Part shown: in pieces, positions 4,879 to 57,113 of the stretch
Layout: each line of letters starts with the position of its first letter
Numbering within the stretch: position 1 is the first letter of the stretch
Origin: Minisyncoccota bacterium
GTDB taxonomy: Bacteria > Patescibacteriota > Minisyncoccia > Phycocordibacterales > Phycocordibacteraceae
Assembly: GCA_041663025.1 (NCBI GenBank)
Contig: JBAZRE010000001.1
Location: 71,585 to 135,584, forward strand
Length of the DNA: 64,000 bases
Direction of reading: 5' to 3'
The notes under the pieces: generated by a model
Database searches by the model: none
Told to the model about the DNA's origin: nothing
Seen by the model: the letters and a program-made list of their open reading frames with translations, nothing else
Program-made: the position numbers and the translations under genes

Positions 4879-4884
4879 AAAAAA

Positions 4885-5148
4885 TTATTTACGCTTCAGG
4901 CGATATACCTTGAGTATCTCACCTATCGCGGTGCGCTCCTTCCCCTTCTTAATCTGGTGCACCACGCAGGTTCCAAGATGCTGCTCCATGAGAGCATCTT
5001 CAATACCACAGAGTGCCTGCTTCACCGCAGAGGTCTGCGTGATGACATCAATACAATAAGAATCCTTCTCGAGCATCTCCTGCAATCCACGTACCTGCCC
5101 CTCTACGATCTTCAATCGCCGAATCAATTTTGCTTTATTTTGTTTCAT
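4885..5148 (-). CDS. csoR: CsoR/RcnR-family copper-sensing repressor; start set at ATG 5148 rather than the upstream TTG
   Basis: Signature LIRRLKIVEGQVRGLQEML plus a Cys...His...Cys metal site. The ATG at 5148..5146 sits directly behind the -10 element and operator. The TTG-extended ORF would include the operator, so it was rejected. Confidence 0.85.
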   Translation of the reverse strand: MKQNKAKLIRRLKIVEGQVRGLQEMLEKDSYCIDVITQTSAVKQALCGIEDALMEQHLGTCVVHQIKKGKERTAIGEILKVYRLKRK

Positions 5149-5154
5149 CCGCCC

Positions 5155-5184
5155 ATGATACCCCCCAGGGGTATCATCCGTCAA
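5155..5184 (-). promoter_or_regulatory. Putative sigma70-type promoter of the csoR-copA operon (TTGACG-N18-TATCAT); likely leaderless transcript
   Basis: Minus-strand -35 at 5184..5179 and -10 at 5160..5155. The predicted TSS falls at about the A of the csoR ATG (5148). Confidence 0.4.
5157..5175. promoter_or_regulatory. CsoR operator: perfect inverted repeat GATACCCC-cca-GGGGTATC
   Basis: An 8 bp perfect palindrome of the TACCC/GGGTA type, as bound by CsoR-family repressors. It overlaps the -10 element and is immediately upstream of csoR. Confidence 0.6.
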
Positions 5185-5190
5185 GCCGTC

Positions 5191-5218
5191 TACTTGTGAA
5201 CAACAGAAAACCGCCTTC
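5191..5218 (-). terminator. Intrinsic terminator after tRNA-fMet (hairpin CCGCC-agaa-GGCGG followed by a U-run)
   Basis: Plus-strand sequence aaaaccgccttctggcggtttt; on the minus strand the hairpin is followed by UUUUCUGUUG. Confidence 0.5.
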
Positions 5219-5238
5219 TGGCGGTTTTCTGTATTACG

Positions 5239-5523
5239 TGGTTGCGGGGGTCGGAATTGAACCGACGTCTGGAGGTTATGCTTACCACTACAATTTTCAT
5301 TGCCCTTTGGTTTGTGGTCTGGACTATGCCTTCATCCGCCAACTGGTGGATGTCTACCGTCTAGTCTCTACACCTTTTCCGCCGAAAGCGGAACTTGGCT
5401 CGGTGTTGCCTTTTGCTATTCGCAAGAGGGGTTCGCCGAATTTGGCAGATGATCTTATGCGCAATTGCTCGCGCACACGCCCGAATACTCAAGCCTCCCG
5501 AGGTACCTCTCCTCTACCCCGCT
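5239..5523 (-). tRNA. Initiator tRNA-fMet(CAU) interrupted by a 211 nt group I intron in the anticodon loop
   Basis: The 5' exon (5523..5492) and 3' exon (5280..5239, CCA encoded) fold as a canonical cloverleaf. Initiator hallmarks are present: A11:U24, unpaired 1:72, anticodon loop CUCAUAA. The 3' half is nearly identical to E. coli tRNA-fMet. Confidence 0.75.
5281..5491 (-). ncRNA. Group I intron (no ORF) inserted after U33 of tRNA-fMet
   Basis: The intron follows an exon U and ends with G (omega-G). P1 can form from exon GCU plus intron UGA paired with the IGS UCGGGC, giving a splice-site U:G wobble. R/S-like elements GAGACUAG and CAUAGUCC could form P7. Confidence 0.6.
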
Positions 5524-5528
5524 CCTAT

Positions 5529-5557
5529 AGTTTACTCTTCTGTAATGGAATTGGCTA
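5529..5557 (-). promoter_or_regulatory. Possible promoter of tRNA-fMet (TAGCCA-N17-TAAACT)
   Basis: The -10 TAAACT ends 6 nt before tRNA position 1. The -35 overlaps the stop codon of the upstream gene. Confidence 0.3.
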
Positions 5558-6133
5558 GATGGCCTTCAATTCACGGAAAACATTCTCGTAGTGCGCAATG
5601 GTGCGGCGCGCAAGAGTTTCAGAGAGATCAAAGGCGGATCCTTGGTGTGCAATCTGATTGCGCACCTTGTGCGCCTCCCACGCTTCTTGAAGTGTTTTAA
5701 ACTCTGTTGGCTCAACACTCTTCAATTTCTCGCCAACACCGTCACCTACATATCCATTTTTTGTAAGCAGGTCGTCGAGCATGATATCTGCCTCAATGAT
5801 TGCGTCTCGCCACTCGCTTGTAGTCGCACCGTTAATAAGCGACTCGATATGTTGCCAGCGCAGATTTGTTCCACCAATAGCATCAGGCGCGAGAATGACC
5901 GTGCTGTAATACTTTTCTTCACGCGCACGCAATTCGAAGATCCGTATGGTGCAATACACAATAATAAAGAGCCCAATAACTGCGAGCGCGTAACCGATGA
6001 TGACGATCCAGATCCAAAGATGTGCGAGCCACGCTGAGAGTCCAGTTAGTCCTGGCGACCCATAACACGTGCCACGTAGACAATCGTAAAGGAGACGGTA
6101 CCAGAATTCGACATTGAGCTGATTCGCCGGCAT
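5555..6133 (-). CDS. Hypothetical membrane-anchored protein with C-terminal HEPN-like Rx4H motifs (VRNQIAH, RRTIAH)
   Basis: The product has a 32-residue hydrophobic segment (1-2 TM) followed by an alpha-helical C-terminal domain ending in RN-x3-H, as in HepT/Abi HEPN RNases. No partner gene is present. Confidence 0.5.
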   Translation of the reverse strand: MPANQLNVEFWYRLLYDCLRGTCYGSPGLTGLSAWLAHLWIWIVIIGYALAVIGLFIIVYCTIRIFELRAREEKYYSTVILAPDAIGGTNLRWQHIESLINGATTSEWRDAIIEADIMLDDLLTKNGYVGDGVGEKLKSVEPTEFKTLQEAWEAHKVRNQIAHQGSAFDLSETLARRTIAHYENVFRELKAI

Positions 6134-43711: not shown

Positions 43712-44113
43712 TTACCAAATCTCAAAAAGCTCTTCGCCACCCGTGCGATTCTTGCGTGCCTCCGCATCAGAGATGATGCCAACTGAGGAGGAGAGTATGC
43801 GCGCTCCCGTGCCACCCTTCACCGAGTGTGCAGCAGTAGAAGGAGTATAAAGTCGGCGACCTGGCTTAGAGATGCGCTTCACCCCACGGAGCTTCGCCTC
43901 GCCACGCTCGTTGTAGGAGAGCGTTATAACGAGCATTCTTCCTTTTGTATTTGCATCGCCGTCAATAGCAATCGTGGCGATAAACCCGAGCTCCTTGAGC
44001 TTCTTCGCAATAGCGAGCAGGTGTGCTGAATATGGAGCGACGACTTCACGCTTGCCGACCATGGCGGCATTCTGTAAACGAATTATGAAATCTCCAACGC
44101 GGTCAGTTACCAT
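43712..44113 (-). CDS. rpsH: 30S ribosomal protein S8
   Basis: Begins MVTDRVGDFIIRLQNA, with the start 4 nt after the rpsN stop. Confidence 0.9.
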   Translation of the reverse strand: MVTDRVGDFIIRLQNAAMVGKREVVAPYSAHLLAIAKKLKELGFIATIAIDGDANTKGRMLVITLSYNERGEAKLRGVKRISKPGRRLYTPSTAAHSVKGGTGARILSSSVGIISDAEARKNRTGGEELFEIW

Positions 44114-44117
44114 ACAA

Positions 44118-44387
44118 TTACCAAGAGGCTTTCTTAACACCAGGGATCTTGCCGTCGCGAGCGAGCTCGCGGAACTGGATGCGAGAGAGGCCGAAGGCGC
44201 GCATATAGCCGCGCGAGCGGCCCGTGATCGCACAACGGTTCTTGAGGCGCACTGGTGAGGAGTTTCTCGGGAGCTTCTGGAGACCTTCAGAGTCGCCAGC
44301 CAACTTCAAAGCAGCACGCTTGACCGCGTACTTCTTAACGAGTTTCGTCTTTTTGACTAGTCGTGCGAGTTGGGACTTTTTAGCCAT
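44118..44387 (-). CDS. rpsN: 30S ribosomal protein S14 (long, non-zinc type)
   Basis: [20 protein letters not shown]...[17 protein letters not shown]. Confidence 0.88.
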
Positions 44388-44648
44388 GAAAAAATAATGG
44401 CTCCGAAGAGCTCCTGCTACTGTAGCAAATAGGCACTACGCCGTCAAACGACCCTCGGAAGCAACCAAAACTTGCCCAACAAAAGCCCTCCCCTCCTACG
44501 GGCAGGTATCCCTATTTTCTGCTATAGCAGTATTATTGGGTCATAAGTAGGGGTTAGCCCTCGTTGCTATTGCCCCTGAATCTGGTACCGTCTGGATAGA
44601 AGCAAATGTTGGTTGTAAAAATATAAAACAGAAAGGGGGTAAGAAGAG

Positions 44649-44930
44649 ATGGCAAGAAAGGGAATAGTGGTAAAAACAGAAATAACGGTGAACAAAGTTC
44701 CTAAGATTCCTGAGTGGCCAGAGTCGCTTCGAGAAGCCATGCTGGGCGTCGTGTTGGCTGGATGCAACCGCCCAGATGGGTTTGCTGTTGTTTGGGTGAC
44801 CATTCACGCGGCCCTTATGAAGAAGGGGGTTGCCGAGGCAAGCCTGTTCATGAAAAATCTTCCCCTGCATGTGAATCATTTTCTTTTCAAAAAATCTGGG
44901 AAGATTGAAATTGTTCCTTTCCCACAATAA
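44649..44930 (+). CDS. Hypothetical 93 aa protein encoded antisense within the spc operon
   Basis: AAAGGGGGT SD-like element 8 nt upstream; followed by an intrinsic terminator. No recognisable motifs. Confidence 0.35.
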   Translation: MARKGIVVKTEITVNKVPKIPEWPESLREAMLGVVLAGCNRPDGFAVVWVTIHAALMKKGVAEASLFMKNLPLHVNHFLFKKSGKIEIVPFPQ

Positions 44931-44952
44931 CTGCACATAAGGTGCCTAAACC

Positions 44953-44995
44953 AAAACCCGCTCTACGAGCGGGTTTTCACTTTTTTATTTTTAAA
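44953..44995. terminator. Intrinsic terminator (AAAACCCGCTC-tac-GAGCGGGTTTT + T-run)
   Basis: Downstream of both the plus-strand small ORF and minus-strand rplE. Confidence 0.55.
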
Positions 44996-45004
44996 TCTGT
45001 AAAC

Positions 45005-45571
45005 TTATTTCTTTGGCGCGGCTGAATCAACGATGAGCGGCATGCCGAGATGTCGGAAGAATGCTTCTGCCTCGGGCTTCGATTTGGCGGTAGTCACGAC
45101 GGTCACCGCGAGACCGAAAACATCTTTCAAATCTTCATCAGATGTTTCTGGAAAAATGGTGTGATCCTTGAGCCCAATTGTGATGTTGCCCATGTCATCG
45201 ATCGCCTTGGCCGAGAGACCACGGAAGTCGCGTGTGCGCGGGAGCGCGATGTGGATGAGCTTGTCGATAAAGTCATACATACGCGCGCCGCGCAGCGTCA
45301 CTTGGAGGCCAACCGTGTCACCCTCACGCACCTTGAAGGCGGCGATGGAGGTCTTGGCAGAGCGCGGTGCAGCTTTCTGACCGGTAATCTTTGCAAGACG
45401 ATCGGCGATGAGCTCAAGCTGCTTTTTATCGCGCTTCTTGCCGACACCCGAGGAGACAATCGCCTTGGTGATGCGCGCACCCTGCATCGGGCTGGTGTAG
45501 CCAAACTCCTTCGCGAGCGCGAGGTAGGCGGACTGCTGTCTTTGTTTGGTGATTGAAATTGGAGTAGCCAT
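45005..45571 (-). CDS. rplE: 50S ribosomal protein L5
   Basis: 188 aa, canonical L5. Confidence 0.92.
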   Translation of the reverse strand: MATPISITKQRQQSAYLALAKEFGYTSPMQGARITKAIVSSGVGKKRDKKQLELIADRLAKITGQKAAPRSAKTSIAAFKVREGDTVGLQVTLRGARMYDFIDKLIHIALPRTRDFRGLSAKAIDDMGNITIGLKDHTIFPETSDEDLKDVFGLAVTVVTTAKSKPEAEAFFRHLGMPLIVDSAAPKK

Positions 45572-45573
45572 AA

Positions 45574-45831
45574 TTATTTTACGCTCAAGAGAGACTCTTT
45601 CTTCTTGGTAACGCCCGACTGTACCCGCTTCACGTTTGAGGCATCGATCGCGCGCGGGCGTTCAACAATGCGACCCACCTTCCCTGCCGCACCCTTCAAA
45701 TGGCGCTTATAGAGCGCAACGCCATCAATCACGACCTTATTCTCACTCGGGAGTGCACGCACGATAGCTCCGGACTTGCCCTTGTCCTTACCCGATATCA
45801 CCAATACTTCATCTCCTTTTTTTACATGCAT
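45574..45831 (-). CDS. rplX: 50S ribosomal protein L24
   Basis: KOW motif KKGDEVLVISGKDKGKSG. Confidence 0.85.
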   Translation of the reverse strand: MHVKKGDEVLVISGKDKGKSGAIVRALPSENKVVIDGVALYKRHLKGAAGKVGRIVERPRAIDASNVKRVQSGVTKKKESLLSVK

Positions 45832-45841
45832 ACAAATATAA

Positions 45842-46219
45842 TTAGACGACTTCTTGTGCCAGAGACACAATAGAGTGCCAGCCCTTCTCTGATAGTTCGC
45901 GTGGCACGGGGCCGAAGATACGATTCCCCTTCGGGCCCATCTCCTTGCCCTGCTTCTCTATCAGTACGATCGCATTCTCATCAAAGCGGATGCTGGAACC
46001 ATCTTTTCGTTGAAACGGTTTAACTTGGCGCACGACCACCGCACGGAAGATGTCCTTCTTCTTCACCGCTTTGCGCGGTTCAGCAGTCTGCACCGAAATA
46101 ACAACCGTATCGCCAATGCGTGCATAGCGACGATGCGATCCGCCGAGCACCTTGAAAACTCGTGCAACTTTGCCGCCTGAGTTATCTGCAATCATGACGA
46201 TGGATTGTGGTTGTAACAT
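45842..46219 (-). CDS. rplN: 50S ribosomal protein L14
   Basis: MLQPQSIVMIADNSGGKVARVFKVLGG. Confidence 0.92.
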   Translation of the reverse strand: MLQPQSIVMIADNSGGKVARVFKVLGGSHRRYARIGDTVVISVQTAEPRKAVKKKDIFRAVVVRQVKPFQRKDGSSIRFDENAIVLIEKQGKEMGPKGNRIFGPVPRELSEKGWHSIVSLAQEVV

Positions 46220-46220
46220 A

Positions 46221-46541
46221 TTATTTTTCCGAGTCAGCCGAGGAGACACCTCGCGGCGAGGAGTCACCTCGGCTGGTGTCTCCTCGGTCTGATTTCTCGA
46301 TTTTTGAAATCTTGAAACGCTTCAACTTTGAAATCGGACGTGTAGCTACGATAGTTACCTTGTCACCGACCTGTGCTGTATTGCCGACATCATGCACAAG
46401 GTACTTTTTAGAGAGCACAAAATATTTCTTCAACTTCGCATTCTTCTCGAAACGATCGACACGAACCGTGGCCGTATCTTTCATGGCCGTCTTCACGACG
46501 ACGCCAGAGAATGATTGTGGGTTTGAGGTTTCTTTTTTCAT
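46221..46541 (-). CDS. rpsQ: 30S ribosomal protein S17 (with C-terminal extension)
   Basis: VVKTAMKDTATVRVDRFEKNAKLKKY. Confidence 0.88.
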   Translation of the reverse strand: MKKETSNPQSFSGVVVKTAMKDTATVRVDRFEKNAKLKKYFVLSKKYLVHDVGNTAQVGDKVTIVATRPISKLKRFKISKIEKSDRGDTSRGDSSPRGVSSADSEK

Positions 46542-46546
46542 AGGAT

Positions 46547-46747
46547 TTATACGGCCTTCAGATTACGACCATGTTGCTCGGTCAGAATACGCGCGATAGT
46601 CGTGCGAAGTTTCTTCGGAGCATTACTCTCTTTAGCACGTGAGCCAGCAGCTGAGAAACGCTCGGTGCGCAGGGCGGCACGCGTATCGGCAAGAAGCCCC
46701 GTGAGCTCCTGGTCAGTCTTGGTTGTCATAGATTCTTTTTTTGTCAT
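46547..46747 (-). CDS. rpmC: 50S ribosomal protein L29
   Basis: 66 aa, with the LTGLLADTRAALRTERF helix. Confidence 0.85.
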   Translation of the reverse strand: MTKKESMTTKTDQELTGLLADTRAALRTERFSAAGSRAKESNAPKKLRTTIARILTEQHGRNLKAV

Positions 46748-46768
46748 ACAAATGGAAGAAAAGCAAAC

Positions 46769-47191
46769 TTAATGGGATAGAACGATCGCTGTCTTGACCG
46801 GAAGCTTCATGCCAGCCTTGCGCAGGTGCTCACGTGCGATTGCTTCTGGGACACCGTCATACTCGAATAGAACACGGCCCGGACGCACCTCAAAAACGTA
46901 GTGCTTTGGTTCGCCCTTTCCACTTCCCATGCCCACTTCCGCTGGCTTCTGCGTCACGGGGCGGTCGGGAAAGATGCGAATCCAGAGCTTGCCGGTCTTC
47001 GCTGTTGCGCGTGTGAGCACCTTGCGCGCCGCCTCAATCTGATTGCTCGTTACGCGCGCACTCGAGAGCGCCTTGAGTGCAATTGAGCCGAAGACCACAG
47101 TGATACCGCGTGTGTCAGGACGCGAAAGACGCTTCAAGCTCTTGCGCTGCGTCTGCCACTTGCGATGCTTAACTTTTTTAGGAAACAACAT
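46769..47191 (-). CDS. rplP: 50S ribosomal protein L16
   Basis: Begins [17 protein letters not shown], with the start at an internal Met 10 nt after the rpsC stop. Confidence 0.92.
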
Positions 47192-47201
47192 ACAAAAAAT
47201 A

Positions 47202-47903
47202 TTAGCCGCGTGACACTCCCTCAGGAATGCGCACTGGGGTCTTCTTGTCTTGATAGACATTCCCGCGGAAGATCCACACCTTGATGCCGATAACACCATA
47301 CGGCAAGTGCGCTTCCTCATAAGCAAAGTCAATGTCGGCACGGAAGGTTTGGAGTGGAATACGACCTTTCTTCGCCTCCTCCTTGCGGCTCATCTCTGCT
47401 CCGCCCAAGCGACCAGAGAGAGTGATGCGAACGCCCTCGACCTCGCGCGCCGCAATAACCTTCTCAACCGTTTGCTTCATTACCCGGCGAAACGGCATGC
47501 GCTTCTCGAGTCCTTCAGCAACCATGTAGGCGACGACCGCAGCGTCGGTCTCTGGCTGACGCATTTCGACAATGTCGAGCTTCAAGGTACGCGTATCCTT
47601 TGGCGCAACAGCGCGGATAGCATCTGATACCTCCTTACGCAACTTGGTCGCGTTCTCTCCTGAACGTCCGATGACGAGTCCTGGGCGCGCAGTCGAGAGA
47701 ATAACGCGAAGCGTACTCGCCGAGCGCTCGATCTCGATGCCACTCGTATAGGTACCGCGAAGACGCTTTGTGAGGAAGCGACGAATCGTCTCATCGACCT
47801 TGATGTTCTCGCAGTAACTCTTCTTATCGGCAGCGAACCAACGACTCTTCCAATCTCGGATGATGCCGAGACGGTGTGCGTAAGGATGTACTGTGTGAGT
47901 CAT
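47202..47903 (-). CDS. rpsC: 30S ribosomal protein S3
   Basis: KH domain plus an S3 C-terminal domain; 233 aa. Confidence 0.93.
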   Translation of the reverse strand: MTHTVHPYAHRLGIIRDWKSRWFAADKKSYCENIKVDETIRRFLTKRLRGTYTSGIEIERSASTLRVILSTARPGLVIGRSGENATKLRKEVSDAIRAVAPKDTRTLKLDIVEMRQPETDAAVVAYMVAEGLEKRMPFRRVMKQTVEKVIAAREVEGVRITLSGRLGGAEMSRKEEAKKGRIPLQTFRADIDFAYEEAHLPYGVIGIKVWIFRGNVYQDKKTPVRIPEGVSRG

Positions 47904-47907
47904 AAGT

Positions 47908-48228
47908 TTATGCGAGCGTCACGATTACCCTGCTCTTGCGACGGCGAATAGCTGAAGCACGTCCGAATGCACGCGGCATAAAGCGTTTCGTCATACCGGC
48001 ATTCTCGACAATAATGTTTTTCACTATAAGTTCATCGGGTTTTTTGCCCTGCTCCTTTGCACTCGCAACCGCGCTCTTGATGAGCTTCGCCACCGGCTCT
48101 GCAGCGCGCTTGGGGAGGAACTGGAGTGCGGCGAGTGCGGCGGCAATCTTCTTGCCCTTAACGAGCTCAGTCACCAAGCGCGTCTTGCGCGGTGATTGAT
48201 TATGACTCTTGAGTGTTGCATTCGCCAT
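47908..48228 (-). CDS. rplV: 50S ribosomal protein L22
   Basis: 106 aa. Confidence 0.9.
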   Translation of the reverse strand: MANATLKSHNQSPRKTRLVTELVKGKKIAAALAALQFLPKRAAEPVAKLIKSAVASAKEQGKKPDELIVKNIIVENAGMTKRFMPRAFGRASAIRRRKSRVIVTLA

Positions 48229-48230
48229 AC

Positions 48231-48587
48231 TTATTTTTTAGCGGCGGGTTTCGCAGCGGCAGTAGATTCTTTTGCCGCTTTTGCAGAAGCAATCTCAGAC
48301 TCGGCCTTCTTGGCCTCCATCTCCTTCTGCATCTTGCCGCCATGACGGATGAACTTCTTGGTTGGCGAGAATTCGCCGAGGCGATGCCCCACCATCTCTT
48401 CAGAGACGAGCACCTCGAGATGTTGCTTGCCGTTATGGACACCAAAGGTGAAGCCGATCATGTCTGGGCTGATCTGGCTGCGGCGTGCCCACGTCTTAAT
48501 CACTCCCGCCGTGGACGGTTTTGCATTCTGAACCTTCTTCAAGAGTTTGAAGTCTATGAAAGGTCCTTTTTTGAGTGAGCGTGACAT
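48231..48587 (-). CDS. rpsS: 30S ribosomal protein S19 (with Lys/Ala-rich C-terminal tail)
   Basis: [19 protein letters not shown]...GHRLGEF. Confidence 0.92.
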
Positions 48588-48599
48588 GTAAAAGCAATG

Positions 48600-48627
48600 A
48601 AAAGCCCGCGCAGCGGGATAGTTAGAA
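48600..48627 (-). terminator. Hairpin CCCGC-gca-GCGGG followed by a T-rich tract, immediately upstream of rpsS
   Basis: On the minus strand: CCCGCUGCGCGGG followed by CUUUUCAUUGCUUUUAC. Confidence 0.4.
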
Positions 48628-48727
48628 GATACAGGAAGGCGTCTGTAGAGTCAACTGTACCGTTCCCAGACACCCTCATAAATCCTAGGCGATTTCAGAA
48701 CCTTGACAAATGCAAAATAAGACGTGC

Positions 48728-49840
48728 TTAGAGAGCGAAGACCTTCGCACGGGTCATAGGCCCAAACCACCCCGTCGGAGGGAGCCCGACACTCTTCTGG
48801 AATTTTATGAGTGCCGTATAGGTTTTGAAGCCGAAGTAGGTAGTCTCATTGCCGGGAGAGCCGACACCGCCAGCAGCGATACTGAAGCCGTGGGTATTGA
48901 GGAATTGCTGGAGCACTTTGACGTCATTATTTGTCTGGTAGAGCGAGAGATTACGCGTAAAGGAAAACGAAGTTTTTTTAGTAGAAGCGGATGTGATGGG
49001 AGTGGAAGTGGCTGGAGAAGATGGGGCTGTGAACGCCACTTTTACCGAAGAAGATTGTGGAGAAACGCGGCCTTTTGTGTCATACGATGCGATTGTATAG
49101 GTATGTGTGCTTCCTGGGGAGACAGTTGCTGTATACGAGGTCAATGTGGTGTTTCCGATCTGATATCCATCCTGATAGATATAATATCCAACGACGGAGG
49201 CTGATGGGCTCCATGAGAGCGTCACCTGATAGGAACTATTTGCTGTCGCGGTGAGATTGGTCGGTTGTGGAAGCGATATACCAATAACAGATGCTGGGGT
49301 TGGCGATGGTTGCGTTGTTATCGTAGCAGTCGGTTGTGGTGCACTCGATCCTGATGACGATTGTGTTGTGTTAGAAGAAGGGTTTGAAGCGGGAGCAGAA
49401 GTAACAGGGGCAGAAGTAATTTGAGCTATTGCTTTATGTACTTCACTGGAGAAAGCGCTTTCGTTTCCAGATGTATCAACCGCACTGGTGGAAAAATAAT
49501 ATGTTTGGCCATTGGTCAGGCCGGTGAATGCATAGGTCGTAACGTTGCCTACAGTAATACCCGTGATGTATCCGCACGTGCCACACACCTTGGGGTCAGT
49601 ACCAGTTCGCGGCGAAGTACCATAGTAGATTCTATAATTCGCAAGATCCGATTCGGTGTTGGCATTCCATGTTAGTGTGGCCGTCCCTGTCCCTGAACCA
49701 ATCACTGCAGCCACGTTTGATTTTAGAATCTGATTCTGGAAAAGAGTAACGATGCTTGGATAAGAGACCCATGCAACCCCGGCGAGTAACACCACCGCGA
49801 TTGTCGCCACCACCAGAGTTAGTGCTTTTTTGTTATTCAT
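48728..49840 (-). CDS. Membrane-anchored surface protein with two fibronectin type III domains, Ser/Thr/Pro linker and C-terminal PG_binding_1 peptidoglycan-binding domain
   Basis: FN3 signature LTWNANTESDLANYRIYYGTS. PG-binding motif VKVLQQFLNTHGF...GVGSPGNETTYFGFKTYTALIKFQKSVGLPPTGWFGPMT. Start set at MNNKKALTL. Confidence 0.7.
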   Translation of the reverse strand: MNNKKALTLVVATIAVVLLAGVAWVSYPSIVTLFQNQILKSNVAAVIGSGTGTATLTWNANTESDLANYRIYYGTSPRTGTDPKVCGTCGYITGITVGNVTTYAFTGLTNGQTYYFSTSAVDTSGNESAFSSEVHKAIAQITSAPVTSAPASNPSSNTTQSSSGSSAPQPTATITTQPSPTPASVIGISLPQPTNLTATANSSYQVTLSWSPSASVVGYYIYQDGYQIGNTTLTSYTATVSPGSTHTYTIASYDTKGRVSPQSSSVKVAFTAPSSPATSTPITSASTKKTSFSFTRNLSLYQTNNDVKVLQQFLNTHGFSIAAGGVGSPGNETTYFGFKTYTALIKFQKSVGLPPTGWFGPMTRAKVFAL

Positions 49841-49915
49841 ACGTAACCCGACACGGCCTATGGTAGCACGCAAACTAAAATCCCGTGCCAAGGCACGGGA
49901 TTTTAGTTTTCGGTG

Positions 49916-50764
49916 TTACCCTTTCCTCTTTTTGCCGACTTTGCGGCGAGAGACGATGAAGACGTTTGAATACTTCTTCGGGGTGCGGGTCTTCTGACCC
50001 TTGCCGGACGGCTTGCCCCACATGGTCTTAGCACGTTTGAGGCCTCTACCCTGCTTGCCCTCGCCGCCGCCATGCGGATGGTCAACAGGGTTCATCGCGG
50101 TGCCACGAACGGTAGGACGAATACCGAGCCATCGGGAGCGACCTGCTTTACCGATGACGACGAGGTTGTATTCTTCATTTCCAACTGCTCCTATGGATGC
50201 CCAGCAGAGATCGGAGATCTTTCGAATCTCGGTTGACGGGAGCTTCACCTGCGCGTAGCCGGAGTCATGTGCGACAACTTCTGCAAATACTCCTGCACCA
50301 CGTGCAAGAATAGCGCCTGCTGCAGGAGAAAGTTCAATATTATAAACAAATGTACCAACAGGGATCTTCCCGAGCGGCATGCGATTGCCCATGGTGAGCG
50401 GTGCGTTCTCTCCGACGACAAAAGTCGAGCCGACCTTCATCTCCTTTGGCAAGATGACATAGCGGCGCTCGCCGTCTCGATAGAGTGCGAGGCCGATGAA
50501 GGCCGAACGGAACGGATCGTATTCAACAGTTTCAATCTTCGCAGGGATATCCTTCTTGTTGTAGGAGAAATCAACATCGCGATAGCACTTCTTGTGTCCG
50601 CCGCCCTGATGACGCGTCGTGATACGCCCGAAGCCGTTACGGCCACCCTTGCTTCTGTTCGCCTTCATCAAAGGCTTGTGCGGCGCATCACCCGAGAGAA
50701 GCTCTCGGTATGGCAGTGTGGTCATGAAACGACGACTCTTGGTGGTTGGCTTGTAGGTTTTCAT
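49916..50764 (-). CDS. rplB: 50S ribosomal protein L2
   Basis: 282 aa, with the conserved HPHGGGEGK stretch. Confidence 0.95.
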   Translation of the reverse strand: MKTYKPTTKSRRFMTTLPYRELLSGDAPHKPLMKANRSKGGRNGFGRITTRHQGGGHKKCYRDVDFSYNKKDIPAKIETVEYDPFRSAFIGLALYRDGERRYVILPKEMKVGSTFVVGENAPLTMGNRMPLGKIPVGTFVYNIELSPAAGAILARGAGVFAEVVAHDSGYAQVKLPSTEIRKISDLCWASIGAVGNEEYNLVVIGKAGRSRWLGIRPTVRGTAMNPVDHPHGGGEGKQGRGLKRAKTMWGKPSGKGQKTRTPKKYSNVFIVSRRKVGKKRKG

Positions 50765-50794
50765 ATTTGTAAATTGAAAATTGGGAATTAAAAA

Positions 50795-51178
50795 TTATGA
50801 AAACTGTATGGTGTCTCCGGCATTTAGATACACCGAAGCCTTGCGGCGTGCAGGACGCGTGCCGACGCCACGCTTCGTGCGCATCGCCTTCTTCTTGCCT
50901 GGTAGATTCACAATGCAGATTTTGCGAGGTTCAACCTTGTAAATTTCTTTTACTGCTGCAGCAATCTCAGCCTTGGTTGCACGCTTGGGCACCATGAATG
51001 TATAGATGCCCTTGTCGGTCACGATGAGTGCCTTCTCTGAGAACCATGGTGCACGAAGAATCTCATTGGCCATGCCATCAGCGAGCTTCGTCGTGCGTGC
51101 ATGATGCACTCGAGCAGTTTTTGCTGTTTTCGCTTTTTTTGTCTTCTTTTCTACCTTTTTGTTGCCAAATAGTGCCAT
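50795..51178 (-). CDS. rplW: 50S ribosomal protein L23 (about 35 aa Lys-rich N-terminal extension, or internal start at 51073)
   Basis: EILRAPWFSEKALIVTDKGIYTFMV. Confidence 0.88.
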   Translation of the reverse strand: MALFGNKKVEKKTKKAKTAKTARVHHARTTKLADGMANEILRAPWFSEKALIVTDKGIYTFMVPKRATKAEIAAAVKEIYKVEPRKICIVNLPGKKKAMRTKRGVGTRPARRKASVYLNAGDTIQFS

Positions 51179-51188
51179 ACGTATTTAA

Positions 51189-51932
51189 TTATTTTCCGCC
51201 GGAGGCGGATTCGCCTTTGGCGAAAGATGCCACGCGAGCAACTAGCGCCGCAAAAACCTCCTCAGGCTTCTCAATGACGAGATACTTGTGCGTCATGATA
51301 GAGAGTGGGTTCAGGTTGCGAGCCTCTTCGGTGAGCACGCTACCGATATTGCTGAAGCTCTTCACTGTATTGGTGTCATAGGCCGCAAGCGCGAGCAACG
51401 CGGCGTTCTTCTTCTTGGTCGCGAGGAACTTGGCATCGCTACCTGCCGCAAGCGCAACGAGAGCAGATTTCGCTGTTGCTGTTTTTGGTGTGGCAAAGGC
51501 AAAAGAGTTAACGAGAATAATCTCTCCATCTTTCGCTTTACGTGAGAGAACTGCGAGGAGCGCGCCAACGCGCATCTTGCGATTAATCTTTTCACTATAG
51601 TCGCGCTCTGAGAGCGGACCGAATGTCACGCCGCCGTGGCGCCAGATCGGTGAGCGATTTGATCCTGTACGCGCTTGACCGGTGCCTTTCTGCTTCCACG
51701 GTTTCTTGCCACCACCCGAGACTTCAGAGCGATCTTTTGTGTTCGCGCGATTCTGACGGAGGTTGGCCTGCATCGCGGTTGTCACCTGATGCACGAGGTC
51801 ATTCTTCCATGCCACATTAAAAACGCTCGCAGGAAGTGCGATGCTCCCAACCTTCTTGCCTTCCATAGAAAAAATAGACATCTCTGTTGGTGCCTCTTTA
51901 GTTTTCTTCGCGATTTTGTTTGCCGTAGACAT
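51189..51932 (-). CDS. rplD: 50S ribosomal protein L4
   Basis: Start at an internal Met 10 nt after the rplC stop; 247 aa. Confidence 0.9.
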   Translation of the reverse strand: MSTANKIAKKTKEAPTEMSIFSMEGKKVGSIALPASVFNVAWKNDLVHQVTTAMQANLRQNRANTKDRSEVSGGGKKPWKQKGTGQARTGSNRSPIWRHGGVTFGPLSERDYSEKINRKMRVGALLAVLSRKAKDGEIILVNSFAFATPKTATAKSALVALAAGSDAKFLATKKKNAALLALAAYDTNTVKSFSNIGSVLTEEARNLNPLSIMTHKYLVIEKPEEVFAALVARVASFAKGESASGGK

Positions 51933-51942
51933 ACTATTGAAA

Positions 51943-52611
51943 TTATTTATCGATTGCGCCGTGCTTCTTAGTAGGTACTGAAACGATCTCAAGGAGAGTA
52001 CCGCGTGCCCCCGGCACTGCGCCCGAGACAATGATCTTGCCCGCTTTCACATCCACAGCGAGAATCTTCAAATTCTCAACGCGAACGCGATCTTGACCCA
52101 TACGTCCGGCCATGCGGATGCCCTTGGCGACACGGCCGCCGGCACGACCGCCCGATCCGCCGATAGACCCTGGCTCGCGCTCAGAGTGTTTCTGTCCGTG
52201 CGAACGTGGGCCGCCGTGGAATCCGTGACGCTTCACCCCGCCTTGGAAGCCTTTGCCCTTCGTCAAACCCGAAACACTGACCATGTCACCGACAGCAAAT
52301 GTAGAAGCATCGATAGTACCGCCAACCTCAGCCGCATTATTGATCGCATCAGAACCGCCAAAAGCGACCGGGAACTCGCGAATTGCTTCATAGCCCTTAC
52401 CCTTGGTGTGGCCCAAGACCGACTTAGAGATATTCTTCACCTTACGGACGCCCATGCCGACCTGGACTGCTGAGTAGCCATCCTTCCCCTCCTTGGTCTT
52501 CACGGCAGTCACGGTGATTGGGTTGGCAACGAGAATAGTCCCCGCGCGGGCGCGGCCATCCTCCCCGAAGATACGGGTCATGCTTTCTTTTTTGGCTAGA
52601 ATGAATTTCAT
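51943..52611 (-). CDS. rplC: 50S ribosomal protein L3
   Basis: MKFILAKKESMTRIFGEDGRA. Confidence 0.93.
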   Translation of the reverse strand: MKFILAKKESMTRIFGEDGRARAGTILVANPITVTAVKTKEGKDGYSAVQVGMGVRKVKNISKSVLGHTKGKGYEAIREFPVAFGGSDAINNAAEVGGTIDASTFAVGDMVSVSGLTKGKGFQGGVKRHGFHGGPRSHGQKHSEREPGSIGGSGGRAGGRVAKGIRMAGRMGQDRVRVENLKILAVDVKAGKIIVSGAVPGARGTLLEIVSVPTKKHGAIDK

Positions 52612-52623
52612 TTTTTAAAGCAA

Positions 52624-52652
52624 AACGCGCGATGACAGACGCATCGCGCGTT
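52624..52652 (-). promoter_or_regulatory. Leader hairpin 12 nt upstream of the rplC start (GCGCGATG-acagac-CATCGCGC); candidate autoregulatory/attenuator structure
   Basis: A 10 bp stem followed on the minus strand by UUUGCUUUAAAAAA. Confidence 0.35.
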
Positions 52653-52687
52653 CTGCCATAGGACCAGCCGCGGGCACTGTTCTTAGC

Positions 52688-52715
52688 GTTATAAGCACTC
52701 TACACTAGGCGACAA
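52688..52715 (-). promoter_or_regulatory. Candidate promoter for rplC-...-rpsS (TTGTCG-N16-TATAAC)
   Basis: Located between the rpsJ terminator and the rplC leader hairpin. Confidence 0.3.
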
Positions 52716-52753
52716 AAACATGCAACCGCCCCAGAGGGGCGGTTGCATGTTTT
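52715..52753. terminator. Strong bidirectional intrinsic terminator 17 nt after rpsJ (AAAACATGCAACCGCCCC-agag-GGGGCGGTTGCATGTTTT)
   Basis: Perfect 18 bp stem flanked by A and T runs. Confidence 0.6.
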
Positions 52754-52769
52754 CTATCTTGGCGATCGG

Positions 52770-53192
52770 TTAAACCATCTTCACATCAATCGTGACTCCC
52801 GAGGGGAGATTGAGGTTCGTGAGGGCCTCAACCACCTTTTGTGAGGGATTCATGATGTCGATAAGGCGCTTATGAATGCGCATTTCAAACTGTTCGCGCG
52901 CATCCTTGTGCACGAATGTTGAGCGATTGACCGTCCAACGCTTGATTTCGGTCGGGAGTGGAACTGGACCAACGACGATCGCATCGAAACGAGCAGCGGT
53001 GTCCATGATCTGCTTTACCGAGAGATCGAGAATCTTGTGTTCATAGGCGCGGACGCGAATGCGGAGTTTGTGCTCCACCAGAGCAGGTGCTGCGACTTTT
53101 TTCGTCACAACTCTCGCCCGCGGCGCCTTCGGCGCCGCGACTTTGGGGGCTGCGCGTTTTACTTTTGGTTTTGTGGCTGTCGCTGTAGGCAT
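52770..53192 (-). CDS. rpsJ: 30S ribosomal protein S10 (38 aa Lys/Ala/Pro-rich N-terminal extension, or a later start)
   Basis: HKLRIRVRAYEHKILD...VGPVPLPT...HKDAREQFEMRIHKRLIDI. Confidence 0.9.
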   Translation of the reverse strand: MPTATATKPKVKRAAPKVAAPKAPRARVVTKKVAAPALVEHKLRIRVRAYEHKILDLSVKQIMDTAARFDAIVVGPVPLPTEIKRWTVNRSTFVHKDAREQFEMRIHKRLIDIMNPSQKVVEALTNLNLPSGVTIDVKMV

Positions 53193-53198
53193 AATTGA

Positions 53199-53262
53199 AT
53201 AGTTAGCAGGAGGCAGTAGCTGGAGGCAGGAATTTCAGACTGCTTGGTGCTCCTGCTTACTG
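53199..53262. repeat. Imperfect palindromic dispersed repeat (GCAGGAGGCAG...CTGCTTACTGCTTAC), copy B, filling the tuf-rpsJ spacer
   Basis: Same architecture as the copy at 10862..10930. Confidence 0.5.
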
Positions 53263-53263
53263 C

Positions 53264-54463
53264 TTACGCAGTTATTTTAGTTACGACACCGGCACCAACG
53301 GTCTTGCCGCCTTCGCGAATAGCGAAGTGCTGTTGCTCTTCAAGAGCGACTGGCGCAACAAGCTTCACTTTGAAAGTGACTGTGTCACCAGGCATGACCA
53401 TCTCCTTACCCTCTGCGAGGGTCACTTCACCCGTCACGTCTGTCGTGCGGATATAGAACTGTGGCTTGTAGCCAGAAAAGAACGGCGTGTGACGGCCACC
53501 TTCATCCTTGCCCAAGATGTAGACCTCAGCGTCAAAGTCCGTGTGCGGAGTAACCGCTCCAGTCTTCGAGAGAACTTGTCCACGATGCACGTCTTCTTTC
53601 TTGGTACCGCGAAGGAGGATACCAGCATTGTCGCCTGCCTGACCTTCTTGGAGCTGCTTGTTGAACATTTCAATACCAGTGACGGTCGTCTTCATGGTCG
53701 GCTTGATGCCAACGATTTCAACCTCTTCACCAACTTTGATGACACCGCGCTCAATGCGGCCAGTGACCACAGTGCCCCTGCCTTCAATCGAGAAGATGTC
53801 TTCAATCGGCATGAGGAACGGTTTGGTAACTTCACGCTCTGGTTGATCGAAGTATGTGTCCATCGTGTCAACGAGCTCCTTAACCTTAACCGCCCACTCA
53901 TCACTGACGTCCTTAGCATCAAGTGCTTTGAGGCCAGAACCGCGGATAATCGGCGTATTTGCGCCATCGTAGCCCTGCTTTGTGAGAAGCTCGCGAATCT
54001 CCTCTTCGACGAGATCAATAAGATCTGCCTCGGCGACCATATCTACTTTGTTCAAGAAAACGATGAGTTTCTTGAGACCCACCTGCTTTGCAAGCAAAAT
54101 GTGCTCGCGCGTTTGCGGCATAACGCCGTCAGTCGCGGCGACTACGAGAACTGCACCGTCCATCTGGGCCGCACCCGTAATCATGTTCTTGATGTAGTCA
54201 GCGTGTCCTGGCGCGTCGATGTGCGCGTAGTGACGATTCGGTGTCTCGTACTCCGAGTGGTGGAGCGCAATGGTGATACCGCGTGCCTTCTCTTCTGGTG
54301 CACTGTCGATCTTATCAACGCCCTCAACACGCGCGCTGTAGCCCGATCCTGTCAACATTGAGAGGATGTGCAGGATGCTTGCGGTGAGGGTCGTCTTGCC
54401 GTGGTCAACGTGGCCAATGGTGCCGACGTTCATGTGCGGCTTGCTGCGATTAAATTCTGCCAT
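53264..54463 (-). CDS. tuf: Elongation factor Tu
   Basis: [14 protein letters not shown] and NKxD motifs; 399 aa. Confidence 0.97.
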
Positions 54464-54680
54464 ATATCGGATAATTTATTTAATAAATCACGAATAAATC
54501 CGACGTGAGTCGGAACAATCTAAGGCTTGCCGACTCACAGAAGCAGACAAGCCAAAGAGCGACGCCAAGATGCGTTATGAACACTATACGCAAACCTATA
54601 AGGAAATGCAAATGATTGTGGGGAAACACTAAAGCCTACCGCGAGGCAGGCTTTATTGGATGAAGTGGTTTGGCCACCAC

Positions 54681-54878
54681 TTATTCTTCAGGTGACCCAC
54701 GCATCAATTCGGTTACACAGAACACTGCGAGGGCAAGAAACAGTAGAAATCCTACCCGCCACAACCCCATACCGAAATAATTAACTAGAACAAAGAGGAA
54801 CAGGGTCGCTAGTACCGTGATGCTACAGAAATACCGTTTGTTTGTACCAAAGAACAAAAGAACCAATTTATTATTCAT
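54681..54878 (-). CDS. Hypothetical 65 aa two-TM membrane protein between fusA and tuf
   Basis: AGGAGG SD 7 nt upstream; a hairpin AAAGCCU...AGGCUUU just downstream. Confidence 0.45.
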   Translation of the reverse strand: MNNKLVLLFFGTNKRYFCSITVLATLFLFVLVNYFGMGLWRVGFLLFLALAVFCVTELMRGSPEE

Positions 54879-54965
54879 GACTTCCCTCCTCTTTGTAGTT
54901 GAACTTCTGACAAAAACCTCCTCAATCTGACCGTAGCATAGCGCATTAGGTCAGCTTTATCAAAC

Positions 54966-57113
54966 TTACTTACGCGAGGCGATGATATCCGTCGCAATGT
55001 TGTTCGGCACCGTGTCGTAGTGGTCAAATTCCATCGTCATACTGCCGCGGCCTTCGGTCATGGAACGGAGGGTAGTGGTGTAGCCGAACATTTCAGAGAG
55101 CGGCACTTTAGCATGCACGATTTTGTTCTGACCTCGCTCTTCCATACCCTCTATCTGACCGCGCTTGCCTGAGAGATTGCCGGTGATATCGCCCATGAAT
55201 TGTTCTGGAACAATGACGTCAACTTTCATAATCGGTTCAAGAATAACTGCCTTCGCTTTCGAAGCGGCCTCTTGGAAAGCCATAGATGCAGCAATTTTGA
55301 AAGCGATTTCTGAAGAGTCCACATCGTGGAATGACCCATCGTAGAGGTCGACAGAGATGTCCACCATCGGGAAGCCTGCGAGGAATCCTCTCGACATCGC
55401 CTCGCGTATACCCTTCTCCACGGGAGCAATGAACTCTTGTGGAATAACACCGCCCTTGATGTTGTTGATGAACTCGAAGTGATCTTCGCGCGTGATATTT
55501 TTTGAAACTTTCTTATCCGGATCCACTGGTTCCATCTTCTTCATCTTGATCTTCACATGACCATACTGGCCGCGACCGCCGGTCTGCTTGATGTACTTCC
55601 CTTCTGCTTCGGCGGAGCCGAGAATTGTCTCACGATATGCCACCTGCGGCTTACCCACATCAGCGACAACGTTAAATTCGCGCTTCATGCGCTCCACGAG
55701 AATTTCCAAGTGCAACTCGCCCATACCAGAGATAATCGTCTCCCCAGTCTCTTCGTCGGTCTTGATGCGGAAGGTCGGATCTTCATCTGAGAGCTTACGG
55801 AGCGCGATGCCCATCTTCTCTTGATCTGCCTTTGTCTTCGGCTCAATGCGGAGCGACACCACCGGCTCAGGGAATTTAATCTGTTCAAGAATGATCGGAT
55901 TCGCTTCATCGCAGAGTGTGTGCGATGTTTTGGTATCTTTGAGACCAACAGCCGCAGCAATCTCACCAGTGAATACCTGCGCCACTTCTTCACGCTTGTC
56001 AGCCTGGAGGCGCACAATGCGACCAACGCGCTCCTTACCACCAGTGGTCGAGTTATAGACATACGAACCAGCAGTGAGTGTGCCTGAATACACACGGAAG
56101 AAGGTCAGAGCACCAACGAATGGGTCGGTCTGGAGCTTGAAGGCGAGCGCACAAAACGGCTCATCGTCTGACGCATGGCGCTCAACCGGCTCGCCGGTCT
56201 TTGGGTTGATACCGGTGACAGGCTTCAGATCTACTGGAGATGGGAGAAGATCGACGACCGCATCAAGCACCAACTGGACACCCTTATTCTTCAACGCAGA
56301 GCCGGTGAATACCGGGAATATCTCATTGTTAATGACTGCGTTACGCAAGATCGCCTTCAATTCTTCAAGACTCGGCTCTTTGCCGTCCAAGTAGGCGCCC
56401 ATTGCTGCATCATCTTGCTCCACAATGCGCTCAATAAGCTCGGCGCGATATTTCTTCGCATCTTCCAAGAGATTCGCGGGTATTTCACCCTCAACCACTT
56501 CTTCGCCCATGTTCCCCACAAAGGTGTATGCCTTCATGGTGAGGAGATCGACAGAACCCTCGTGTGCTCCCTCTTCGCCAATCGGGATTTGCATGCGAAT
56601 CGCCTTGGGTGAGAGTCGATCGAGGATGCTTGCGTAAGAACGCTCAAAGGACGCACCCGTGCGGTCAAGCTTGTTGATGAAACAGAGACGTGGCACTGCG
56701 GCATCATCGGCATAACGCCAGTTGGTCTCAGACTGCGGCTCGACGCCTGACACGCCGTCGAAGACAACAATAGCGCCATCAAGCACGCGCATCGAGCGCT
56801 GCACCTCGGCGGTGAAGTCGATGTGTCCGGGGGTGTCGATAATATTGAAACGATTTTTCTTCGCAGTATCTTTTTTATCTTTCTCGCCTGTCTTGGTCCA
56901 GAAGCAGGTGATAGCGGCGGAGGTGATGGTGATGCCACGCTCGCGCTCCTGCTCCATCCAGTCGGTGGTAGTCTCGCCCTCATGCACTTCACCGATCTTG
57001 TGCTGACTGCCAGTATAGAAAAGGATGCGCTCACTGCAGGTAGTTTTCCCCGCGTCGATGTGAGCGATGATGCCGAAATTTCGAACTTTCTCTAGTGGGT
57101 AATCTCTGTTCAT
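54966..57113 (-). CDS. fusA: Elongation factor G
   Basis: Begins [14 protein letters not shown]; 715 aa; all five EF-G domains. Confidence 0.97.

Follow-up and report, generated by a model that had tools for sequence, protein, structure and literature searches.

The S10/spc cluster of ribosomal-protein genes is a standard example of conserved gene order, and it is a source of the marker proteins that place the Candidate Phyla Radiation (CPR) on the tree. In the stretch of Minisyncoccota DNA analysed here, which is 64,000 nt long and is called the window throughout, this cluster is interrupted between rplB and rpsS by an open reading frame (ORF) for a predicted envelope protein. A first-pass annotation of the same DNA had placed this gene inside the S10 operon, at a junction which was taken to span 0-20 nt normally. 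How does such a gene come to lie at this position, and does it belong to the operon? As judged from sequence comparison, rplB/rpsS is a clade-wide operon boundary with a variable cargo slot, and the gene, referred to below as the cargo gene, is the occupant of that slot in the window. The order on the minus strand is rplB, cargo gene, rpsS:

49916..50764, minus strand: rplB (uL2), last gene of the upstream ribosomal-protein unit (Pfam Ribosomal_L2_N and Ribosomal_L2_C)
48728..49840, minus strand: cargo gene, 370 aa from the ATG at 49840
48231..48587, minus strand: rpsS (uS19), first gene of the downstream unit, which extends from rpsS to rplE (Pfam Ribosomal_S19; gene order)

The rplB-rpsS spacer and its contents

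Relatives were collected in two ways. Genome relatives are those with the closest rplB genes in a one-genome-per-species collection, from records titled Kaiserbacteria, Taylorbacteria, Zambryskiibacteria, Paceibacterota and Minisyncoccia; by these matches the window belongs to a CPR bacterium of the Paceibacteria type. Metagenomes were scanned with the N-terminal part of rplB, which is lineage-specific, and gave 80 further relatives with 62-92% rplB identity. The rplB of the window shares 71% identity with one from Kaiserbacteria and up to 92% with those of metagenomic relatives.

The rplB-rpsS spacer is between 78 and 4846 nt long in all 53 related loci which hold both genes. This applies to the species-representative genomes of the clade (12 of 12 loci, 164-4846 nt) and equally to the metagenomic relatives (41 of 41 loci, 78-3886 nt), while five additional metagenomic loci extend more than 3 kb past rplB and do not reach rpsS. 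The junction of 0-20 nt that had been assumed to be normal was thus not encountered among the relatives. In other phyla (about 60 loci), the matches to the two genes are separated by approximately -22 to 138 nt. The tight junctions include those of one Absconditabacterales locus and of the loci of two more distant relatives (CPR loci L048, L076 and L078). No paper describing a split or an insertion at rplB-rpsS in CPR, Parcubacteria or Patescibacteria was found in the open-access literature, to which the search was confined, and this is weak evidence.

What occupies the spacer differs in nearly every genome. The following occupants could be assigned:

L001: MazE/MazF toxin-antitoxin system
L144: Phd/PemK toxin-antitoxin system
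L094: PemK toxin and a NYN-domain protein
L146: ParE toxin
L153 and L160: HicA toxin with an upstream partner ORF
L155: reverse transcriptase
L089: Fic protein
L083: GT2 glycosyltransferase
L005: DUF5674 protein
6 loci: prokaryotic diacylglycerol kinase
15 loci (L085, L099, L101, L107, L108, L122-L127, L129-L131, L136), opposite strand: DUF3298/PdaC-like protein
L003: surface protein with Big_7 and PG_binding_1, 1439 aa
L114: surface protein with LamG, GSDH and PKD, 1176 aa
L013: PKD/CARDB surface protein, plus an IS200-like transposase
L098: two beta-helix surface proteins
L154: surface protein with BspA-type leucine-rich repeats (LRR) and PG_binding_1

Many further small ORFs in the slot have no family match, and some of the cargo is encoded on the opposite strand with signals of its own. 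The DUF3298/PdaC-like gene, which codes for a membrane-anchored protein of about 255-295 aa, is the commonest occupant in the family-level group of the window and is probably ancestral there. Empty slots exist as well: eight spacers of 78-233 nt are devoid of ORFs of at least 50 aa, and a ninth short spacer (L090, 233 nt) lay outside the ORF scan.

Some of the cargo is of a mobile or defence-like type. This concerns the RVT_1 reverse transcriptase of L155 (8591-9589), the IS200-like Y1 transposase of L013 (10043-10735), and the NYN-domain protein of L094, which is encoded beside the PemK-type toxin (4457-5611). At L143 (6840-10955), rplB is followed by envelope housekeeping genes which, judged from their translations and not from a family search, resemble FtsW/RodA, PAP2, undecaprenyl-diphosphatase and SecD; rpsS does not occur within 4 kb. 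At this locus the ribosomal cluster may be physically broken and not just expanded.

Promoter and leader of rpsS

On the side of rpsS, the slot is delimited by a conserved set of putative signals:

48682..48712, minus strand: start of a conserved block, with the promoter-like TTGTCA-N16-TAGGAT at 48709..48682 (promoter scan; alignment)
48626..48654, minus strand: predicted rpsS core promoter TTGACT-N17-TATCTT (promoter scan; conservation)
48588..48617, minus strand: rpsS leader, with the hairpin CCCGC-TGC-GCGGG, then CUUUUCAUUGCUUUUAC and the ATG (scan; comparison)

Of the 54 clade loci, 48 have the motif TTGAC-N17-19-TAnn[AT]T on the coding strand in the region of about 250 nt ahead of rpsS (12 of 13 in the first set, 36 of 41 in the second). 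Elsewhere in the same loci it occurs 25 times in about 325 kb, which corresponds to an expectation of about 0.02 per 250 nt. When 24 close relatives are aligned, the TTGAC and TAT-TT positions are invariant, and an extra block of about 60 nt further upstream is conserved in 18 of them, whatever the cargo. The suggestion made at the outset that rpsS and the genes downstream of it are re-promoted is therefore well supported by motif frequency and conservation.

On the coding strand, the promoter is followed by 8 nt, the hairpin, CUUUUCAUUGCUUUUAC and the AUG; a Shine-Dalgarno sequence is not present in this leader. The hairpin itself (48617..48605, with the T-run from there onward) starts 8 nt past the -10 box. 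In the terminator scan it has 5 pairs, all of them G-C, a 3-nt loop and the tail CTTTTCATTG, and it thus displays the GC-rich stem-loop and U-run by which an intrinsic terminator is recognised in sequence. Given the short stem and the location at about +1 of the rpsS transcript, its termination efficiency is uncertain.

The arrangement is common in the clade. A GC-rich stem (at least 4 bp) that begins 5-10 nt past the -10 box and leads into a U-run is present in 35 of 36 short leaders, while in composition-matched shuffled leaders the module was found in 0.83 +/- 0.86 cases, with a maximum of 4. This direct test of hairpin and U-run against shuffled leaders was used in place of column covariation, as the hairpins are out of register in MAFFT alignments of the leaders, with stems offset by 1-2 columns across subclades. 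The leaders contain 11 distinct stem sequences in which pairing is kept (among them CCCG/CGGG, CCGC/GCGG, CGCG/CGCG, GAGCTC/GAGCTT, AACGC/GCGTT and GTTGCC/GGCAAT), so that it is the structure which is conserved and not the sequence. The module is also present at empty sites, and in relatives the same succession of promoter, hairpin and U-run is found ahead of tuf and rpsN. Promoters of cargo genes lack it, and these genes are leaderless or have short leaders.

The first-pass annotation had noted a hairpin with T-tract and TTGACT-N17-TATCTT between the inserted gene and rpsS. This can be read as a terminator of the inserted gene, with the promoter element then restarting transcription for rpsS. 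Both elements do exist, and the hairpin is the first structure that could stop transcripts of the cargo gene, as this gene has no other terminator. The order which this reading requires does not hold, however: the hairpin lies not between the inserted gene and the promoter but 3' of the promoter, 8 nt past its -10 box. The same arrangement is found at empty sites and in nearly all of the short leaders, and in the window a hairpin with U-run also closely precedes rpsN, rplC and fusA, and another lies 3' of the promoter-like element of tuf. The position 3' of the promoter and the retention at empty sites assign the hairpin to the rpsS leader, and its occurrence at other translation genes marks it as a leader feature of such genes, not of this insertion. 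We consider a terminate-and-restart arrangement unlikely.

If transcription starts, as is typical, 6-8 nt past the -10 box, the hairpin would be located at the extreme 5' end of the rpsS mRNA. The fixed distance between -10 box and hairpin points to one of three roles, each of which fits the sequence. The hairpin may be a 5'-terminal stabiliser of the mRNA, followed by a U-rich region for ribosome loading without a Shine-Dalgarno sequence. It may act as an attenuator. It may also be a terminator only for transcripts arriving from upstream, because those started at the promoter would begin at or inside its 5' arm. A DNA operator is less likely, since the sequence varies while pairing and U-run persist. 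In a search with Rfam 15 over 44000-55000 at permissive thresholds (E <= 5), no leader family was matched apart from weak hits of the Leu and Trp leaders on terminator-like hairpins, well below gathering scores. The leader module, of which no description was found in the open-access literature either, is a candidate for an undescribed element and not a known Rfam family.

The hairpin after rplB and transcription of the cargo gene

The other side of the slot is formed by a long hairpin, next to which a possible promoter element can be read:

49869..49912 (arms 49869-49889 and 49892-49912), minus strand: long hairpin, 4 nt past the rplB stop codon
49860..49868, minus strand: TGCTACCAT, possible extended -10 promoter element of the cargo gene (read from sequence, hypothesis only)

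The arms of the hairpin are 21 nt long, 95% complementary and separated by a 2-nt loop; an A-run precedes and a U-rich run follows, and the folded segment has -37 kcal/mol. It is likely a bidirectional intrinsic terminator. Equivalent strong hairpins follow rplB in most relatives, with sequences that are unrelated between genomes. At empty sites, too, rplB is followed by a terminator-like hairpin and rpsS is preceded by its promoter and leader, which marks the site as an operon boundary with a variable slot.

The cargo gene is situated between this hairpin and the conserved block upstream of rpsS. Its likely start is the ATG at 49840. A TTG at 49891 would extend the ORF to 48728..49891 on the minus strand (387 aa); this alternative was rejected, as the TTG sits in the loop of the hairpin and the 17-residue extension is not conserved. 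The promoter scan revealed no promoter of the clade type (TTGAC-N17-TAnnnT) upstream of the gene, and it has no terminator of its own. Transcription would probably depend on read-through of the rplB hairpin or on the weak extended -10 element TGCTACCAT, and the transcripts would continue into the rpsS leader and may be stopped there by its hairpin and U-run.

These features have to be considered in relation to the possibility that the cargo gene is a functional member of the S10 operon, co-transcribed so that the amount of the envelope protein tracks ribosome synthesis and growth rate. The gene is oriented like its neighbours and is devoid of a clade-type promoter and of a terminator, its stop codon is only about 15 nt ahead of the rpsS promoter block, and read-through from rplB is a plausible source of its transcript. 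However, a member of an operon should not be separated from its flanks by terminators or promoters, and it should be conserved at its position in relatives. At the level of sequence, neither is the case here: the 21-bp hairpin with its U-rich tail separates the gene from rplB, rpsS has its own conserved promoter, and the gene is absent from this position in 53 of 53 related loci, its closest homologues being found at unrelated loci. In addition, the G+C content at third codon positions is 0.46 for the cargo gene as compared to 0.51-0.62 for the adjacent ribosomal-protein genes. Operon membership is for these reasons improbable, and a location inside the S10 operon, as originally stated, is better described as one at an operon boundary.

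The cargo protein

The first-pass annotation had proposed a membrane-anchored protein of 370 aa with two fibronectin type III (FN3) domains, a linker rich in Ser, Thr and Pro, and a C-terminal PG_binding_1 domain. This architecture was borne out by Pfam, by matches to PDB sequences and by hydropathy. In residues, the layout is as follows:

about 6-27: membrane helix
about 43-137: FN3 domain 1
about 136-190: Ser/Thr/Pro-rich linker
about 191-271: FN3 domain 2
about 271-303: Ser/Thr/Pro-rich linker
304-366: PG_binding_1

Both Pfam families score above their curated cut-offs: fn3 (PF00041) in two separate stretches with 39.7 bits (cut-off 25), and PG_binding_1 (PF01471) with 49 bits (cut-off 23), where residues 304-366 cover profile positions 2-56 of 57. 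Residues 192-268 in the second FN3 domain match PDB 1k85, the FN3 domain of chitinase A1 from Bacillus circulans (E = 6.5e-6), and the C-terminus matches PDB 5tv7, a peptidoglycan-binding protein, in the PDB sequence search. The product of the ATG start begins with MNNKK, after which comes the 19-residue window LTLVVATIAVVLLAGVAWV with a mean Kyte-Doolittle hydropathy of 2.6. Ser, Thr, Pro and Ala together make up 67-69% of both linkers. A catalytic domain was not detected. An AlphaFold2 model from a 4-sequence alignment was used for the order of secondary-structure elements only; it has a helix (3-36), a beta block (43-137), a disordered segment (140-190), a second beta block (194-271, predicted local distance difference test (pLDDT) values of 74-82), a linker and C-terminal helices (305-369), which fits the domain layout.

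The protein is most likely a wall-anchored surface protein. It would be a non-enzymatic component of the envelope, held in the membrane by its N-terminal helix, from which the two FN3 modules would reach outward on flexible Ser/Thr/Pro linkers, while the C-terminal domain would bind peptidoglycan, be it that of the own wall or of a host cell.

Homologous PG_binding_1 C-termini were observed in three otherwise unrelated surface proteins of the slot (L003, 5389-9708; L154, 3443-4984; window, 48743-48931). The outer repeats ahead of this domain are Big_7 in L003, BspA-type LRR in L154 and the two FN3 domains in the window, and the C-terminus of the L003 protein is 53% identical to that of the window protein. 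Many homologues in the databases follow this pattern as well, and in related Paceibacteria proteins the middle part is swapped (Big_7, LRR, beta-helix) while the C-terminal domain is kept. This suggests that PG_binding_1 may be a general wall-anchor module behind swappable outer domains in Paceibacteria surface proteins.

Could the ORF be an artefact of misassembly, a chance ORF or a frameshifted spacer, the last of which had been named from the start as a possible source of error? The strong GC skew over 48800-49550 might suggest foreign or odd sequence, and nothing else was found that would favour an artefact; the skew fits the composition of the Ser/Thr/Pro/Ala-rich linkers. The Pfam domains extend across the whole frame, there are full-length homologues with 52-59% identity, and an identical protein is found in other public assemblies (ENA, Logan). 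On a long ENA contig the cargo gene is followed by rpsS, rplV, rpsC and onward, and another gene ends 75 nt upstream of it; the Logan contig comprises little beyond the cargo gene itself. ENA ERZ27249449 and SRR6484324 are examples of samples in which the contig is present. On account of domain matches, homologues and independent assemblies, the cargo gene is real, and an artefact is hardly conceivable. A 164-aa ORF on the plus strand (48710..49204) was treated as an antisense chance ORF within the cargo gene.

Origin of the cargo gene

Full-length homologues of the cargo protein are P0002 (59% identity) and P0003 (52%), and among 5.8 billion proteins the next-best homologue is 59% identical. 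The genes for P0002 and P0003 do not adjoin ribosomal genes but a VTT-domain gene and MurJ/LepA genes, respectively. There is no paralogue of the cargo gene in the 64 kb of the window. In tblastn searches, the cargo protein had no match in the metagenomic loci L083-L162, and among the genome loci L001-L080 it matched only L003, solely via the PG_binding_1 end.

A neighbour-joining tree of rplB, which is rough and carries no support values, was labelled with cargo states. The nearest neighbours of the window have no cargo (L090), an ORF of 191 aa without assignment (L093) or multi-gene islands of more than 4.5 kb (L094 and L098), and the DUF3298 gene sits on deeper branches of the family-level group. 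With other or no cargo in the nearest neighbours and DUF3298 deeper in the tree, the gene for the two FN3 domains and PG_binding_1 looks like a recent, lineage-specific gain. It was probably acquired after loss of the DUF3298-family gene, of which no relocated copy was found in the 64 kb of the window.

The gene might have arrived on a dedicated mobile element, such as an insertion sequence, an integron-like cassette or a hairpin-targeting element of the IS200/IS605 type, in which case the slot would be an attachment site. The cargo is nearly a bare ORF and resembles a promoterless cassette, there are hairpins on both sides of the slot, and relatives have an IS200-like Y1 transposase (L013) or a reverse transcriptase (L155) at this position. 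However, the spacer of the window contains no recombinase or transposase ORF, no flanking direct repeats or target-site duplication and no attC-like site, and apart from the rplB hairpin no inverted repeat was found at its boundaries. Moreover, the sequences of the hairpins after rplB are unrelated between genomes, unlike attC or att sites, and a transposase is found in only 1 of 54 loci. Arrival on a mobile element of this kind is very unlikely.

Other breaks in the ribosomal cluster

The other junctions of the cluster are mostly tight in relatives, with sporadic expansions at rpsJ/rplC, rplE/rpsN and tuf/rpsJ. The window has a second break between rplE and rpsN, which are separated by 617 nt (44388-45004). 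This spacer contains a convergent ORF of 93 aa (44649..44930, plus strand), which has a strong Shine-Dalgarno sequence and matches no Pfam family, and a bidirectional terminator-like hairpin (44953..44977); ahead of rpsN there is TTGACG-N17-TACAGT, followed by a hairpin and U-run. The same junction is expanded in L002 (about 660 nt) and L006 (about 1490 nt).

The spacer between rpsJ and rplC (52612-52769) has 158 nt and starts with a long terminator-like hairpin directly 3' of rpsJ. A possible promoter (TTGTCG-N16-TATAAC) is followed by a 25-nt hairpin and U-run just 5' of the rplC start. Given this succession of hairpin, possible promoter and leader hairpin, rpsJ may be a separate transcription unit. 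In four related loci, this spacer has about 630-1030 nt.

Between fusA and tuf (54464-54965), there is an ORF of 65 aa (54681..54878, minus strand) which has AGGAGG as its Shine-Dalgarno sequence and codes for two hydrophobic segments; it is followed by TTTGCA-N18-TATAGT, a small hairpin and about 110 nt of leader ahead of tuf. The start of fusA (57113) is likewise preceded by a hairpin and U-run. Several ribosomal proteins of the window have Lys/Ala-rich extensions, namely uS19 at its C-terminus (about 26 residues, 48231-48310), and uS10 (about 38 residues, 53080-53192) and uL23 (about 30 residues, 51090-51178) at their N-termini.

A boundary that serves as a slot

The following picture would account for the data. 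The S10/spc cluster would not be one operon in this clade but would be cut at rplB/rpsS, and in the window also at rplE/rpsN and rpsJ/rplC, into separately promoted units. The boundary consists of a terminator-like hairpin after rplB and, on the other side, of the conserved rpsS promoter, to which the small GC hairpin, the U-rich tract and the start codon are joined. What lies between hairpin and promoter is a clade-wide slot for accessory genes which differ between genomes. Such a slot would persist because insertions are tolerated where two transcription units meet, and homologous exchange would be favoured by the near-invariant flanking genes, which could serve as recombination arms.

Several points weigh against this picture. 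The limits of the clade were drawn from record titles and from no more than three other CPR loci in which the junction is tight. That transcription stops at the rplB hairpin and begins at the rpsS promoter is read from sequence and conservation, as is the start site, and the leader hairpin is so short (4-7 bp, about -7 kcal/mol) that it may not terminate efficiently. Homologous recombination as the route of cargo turnover is our proposal, and we infer the ligand of PG_binding_1 and the orientation in the membrane. As the AlphaFold model has low confidence (mean pLDDT 54, predicted template-modelling score 0.33), the architecture of the cargo protein rests on sequence profiles.

Taken as a whole, the combination of separately promoted units with a clade-wide slot, a cargo gene restricted to its lineage and an envelope protein as its product is the best explanation, and we hold it with good confidence. 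A wider generalization can be put forward only tentatively, with more doubt than conviction on our side: that Paceibacteria in general possess a permanent cargo slot with fast turnover, where genes are exchanged on the ribosomal-protein flanks and expressed by read-through, and that their translation genes share an undescribed leader element.

The clade-wide slot and the leader module are of more interest than the gene itself. A cluster which is always cut at one point and used there as a slot indicates that even S10/spc can be rearranged when its transcription units have become separate. The slot is also a fixed and easily located place at which accessory genes can be sampled from uncultured, host-dependent bacteria; the genes sampled there code for surface and adhesion proteins, toxin-antitoxin systems and defence-like functions, and they could distinguish strains. 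The succession of promoter, hairpin and U-run provides a specific promoter consensus, and a candidate for a regulatory leader, in organisms for which hardly any experimental genetics exists.

Comparison with known systems

The cargo gene is a new member of known domain families and codes for what is itself an ordinary accessory surface protein. Proteins which combine FN3 and PG_binding_1 domains are found among surface proteins and wall enzymes, and the cargo protein resembles these in passing both Pfam cut-offs and in its matches to 1k85 and 5tv7. It differs in having an N-terminal membrane helix and a C-terminal PG_binding_1 domain with no catalytic domain detected.

Integron cassettes share with the cargo gene a compact ORF without recognisable promoter, located beside a hairpin and downstream of a strongly transcribed region. 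In contrast to integrons, there is no integrase and no conserved attC-like site here, the hairpins are unrelated, and some of the cargo is on the reverse strand.

The S10 operon of E. coli has a leader attenuator which is under the control of L4. The two cases have in common that the 5' leader of a ribosomal-protein transcription unit contains a hairpin with a U-run behind it. The module described here, however, precedes rpsS, and also rpsN, rplC, tuf and fusA; its stem has 4-7 bp and lies 5-10 nt past the -10 box, it matches no Rfam family, and it is known from sequence.

Hotspots of gene gain and loss between conserved core genes, where variable islets recur at the same interval in related genomes, are well known. 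Here too, two conserved genes bracket a variable interval which is rich in toxin-antitoxin, defence-like and surface genes. What differs is that this interval lies in the middle of the S10/spc cluster, which is tightly packed at this point in other bacteria, that all sampled members of a class-level clade have it in expanded form, and that it coincides with a terminator/promoter boundary. The slot is therefore a case of the known phenomenon of core-flanked hotspots, at an unexpected address.

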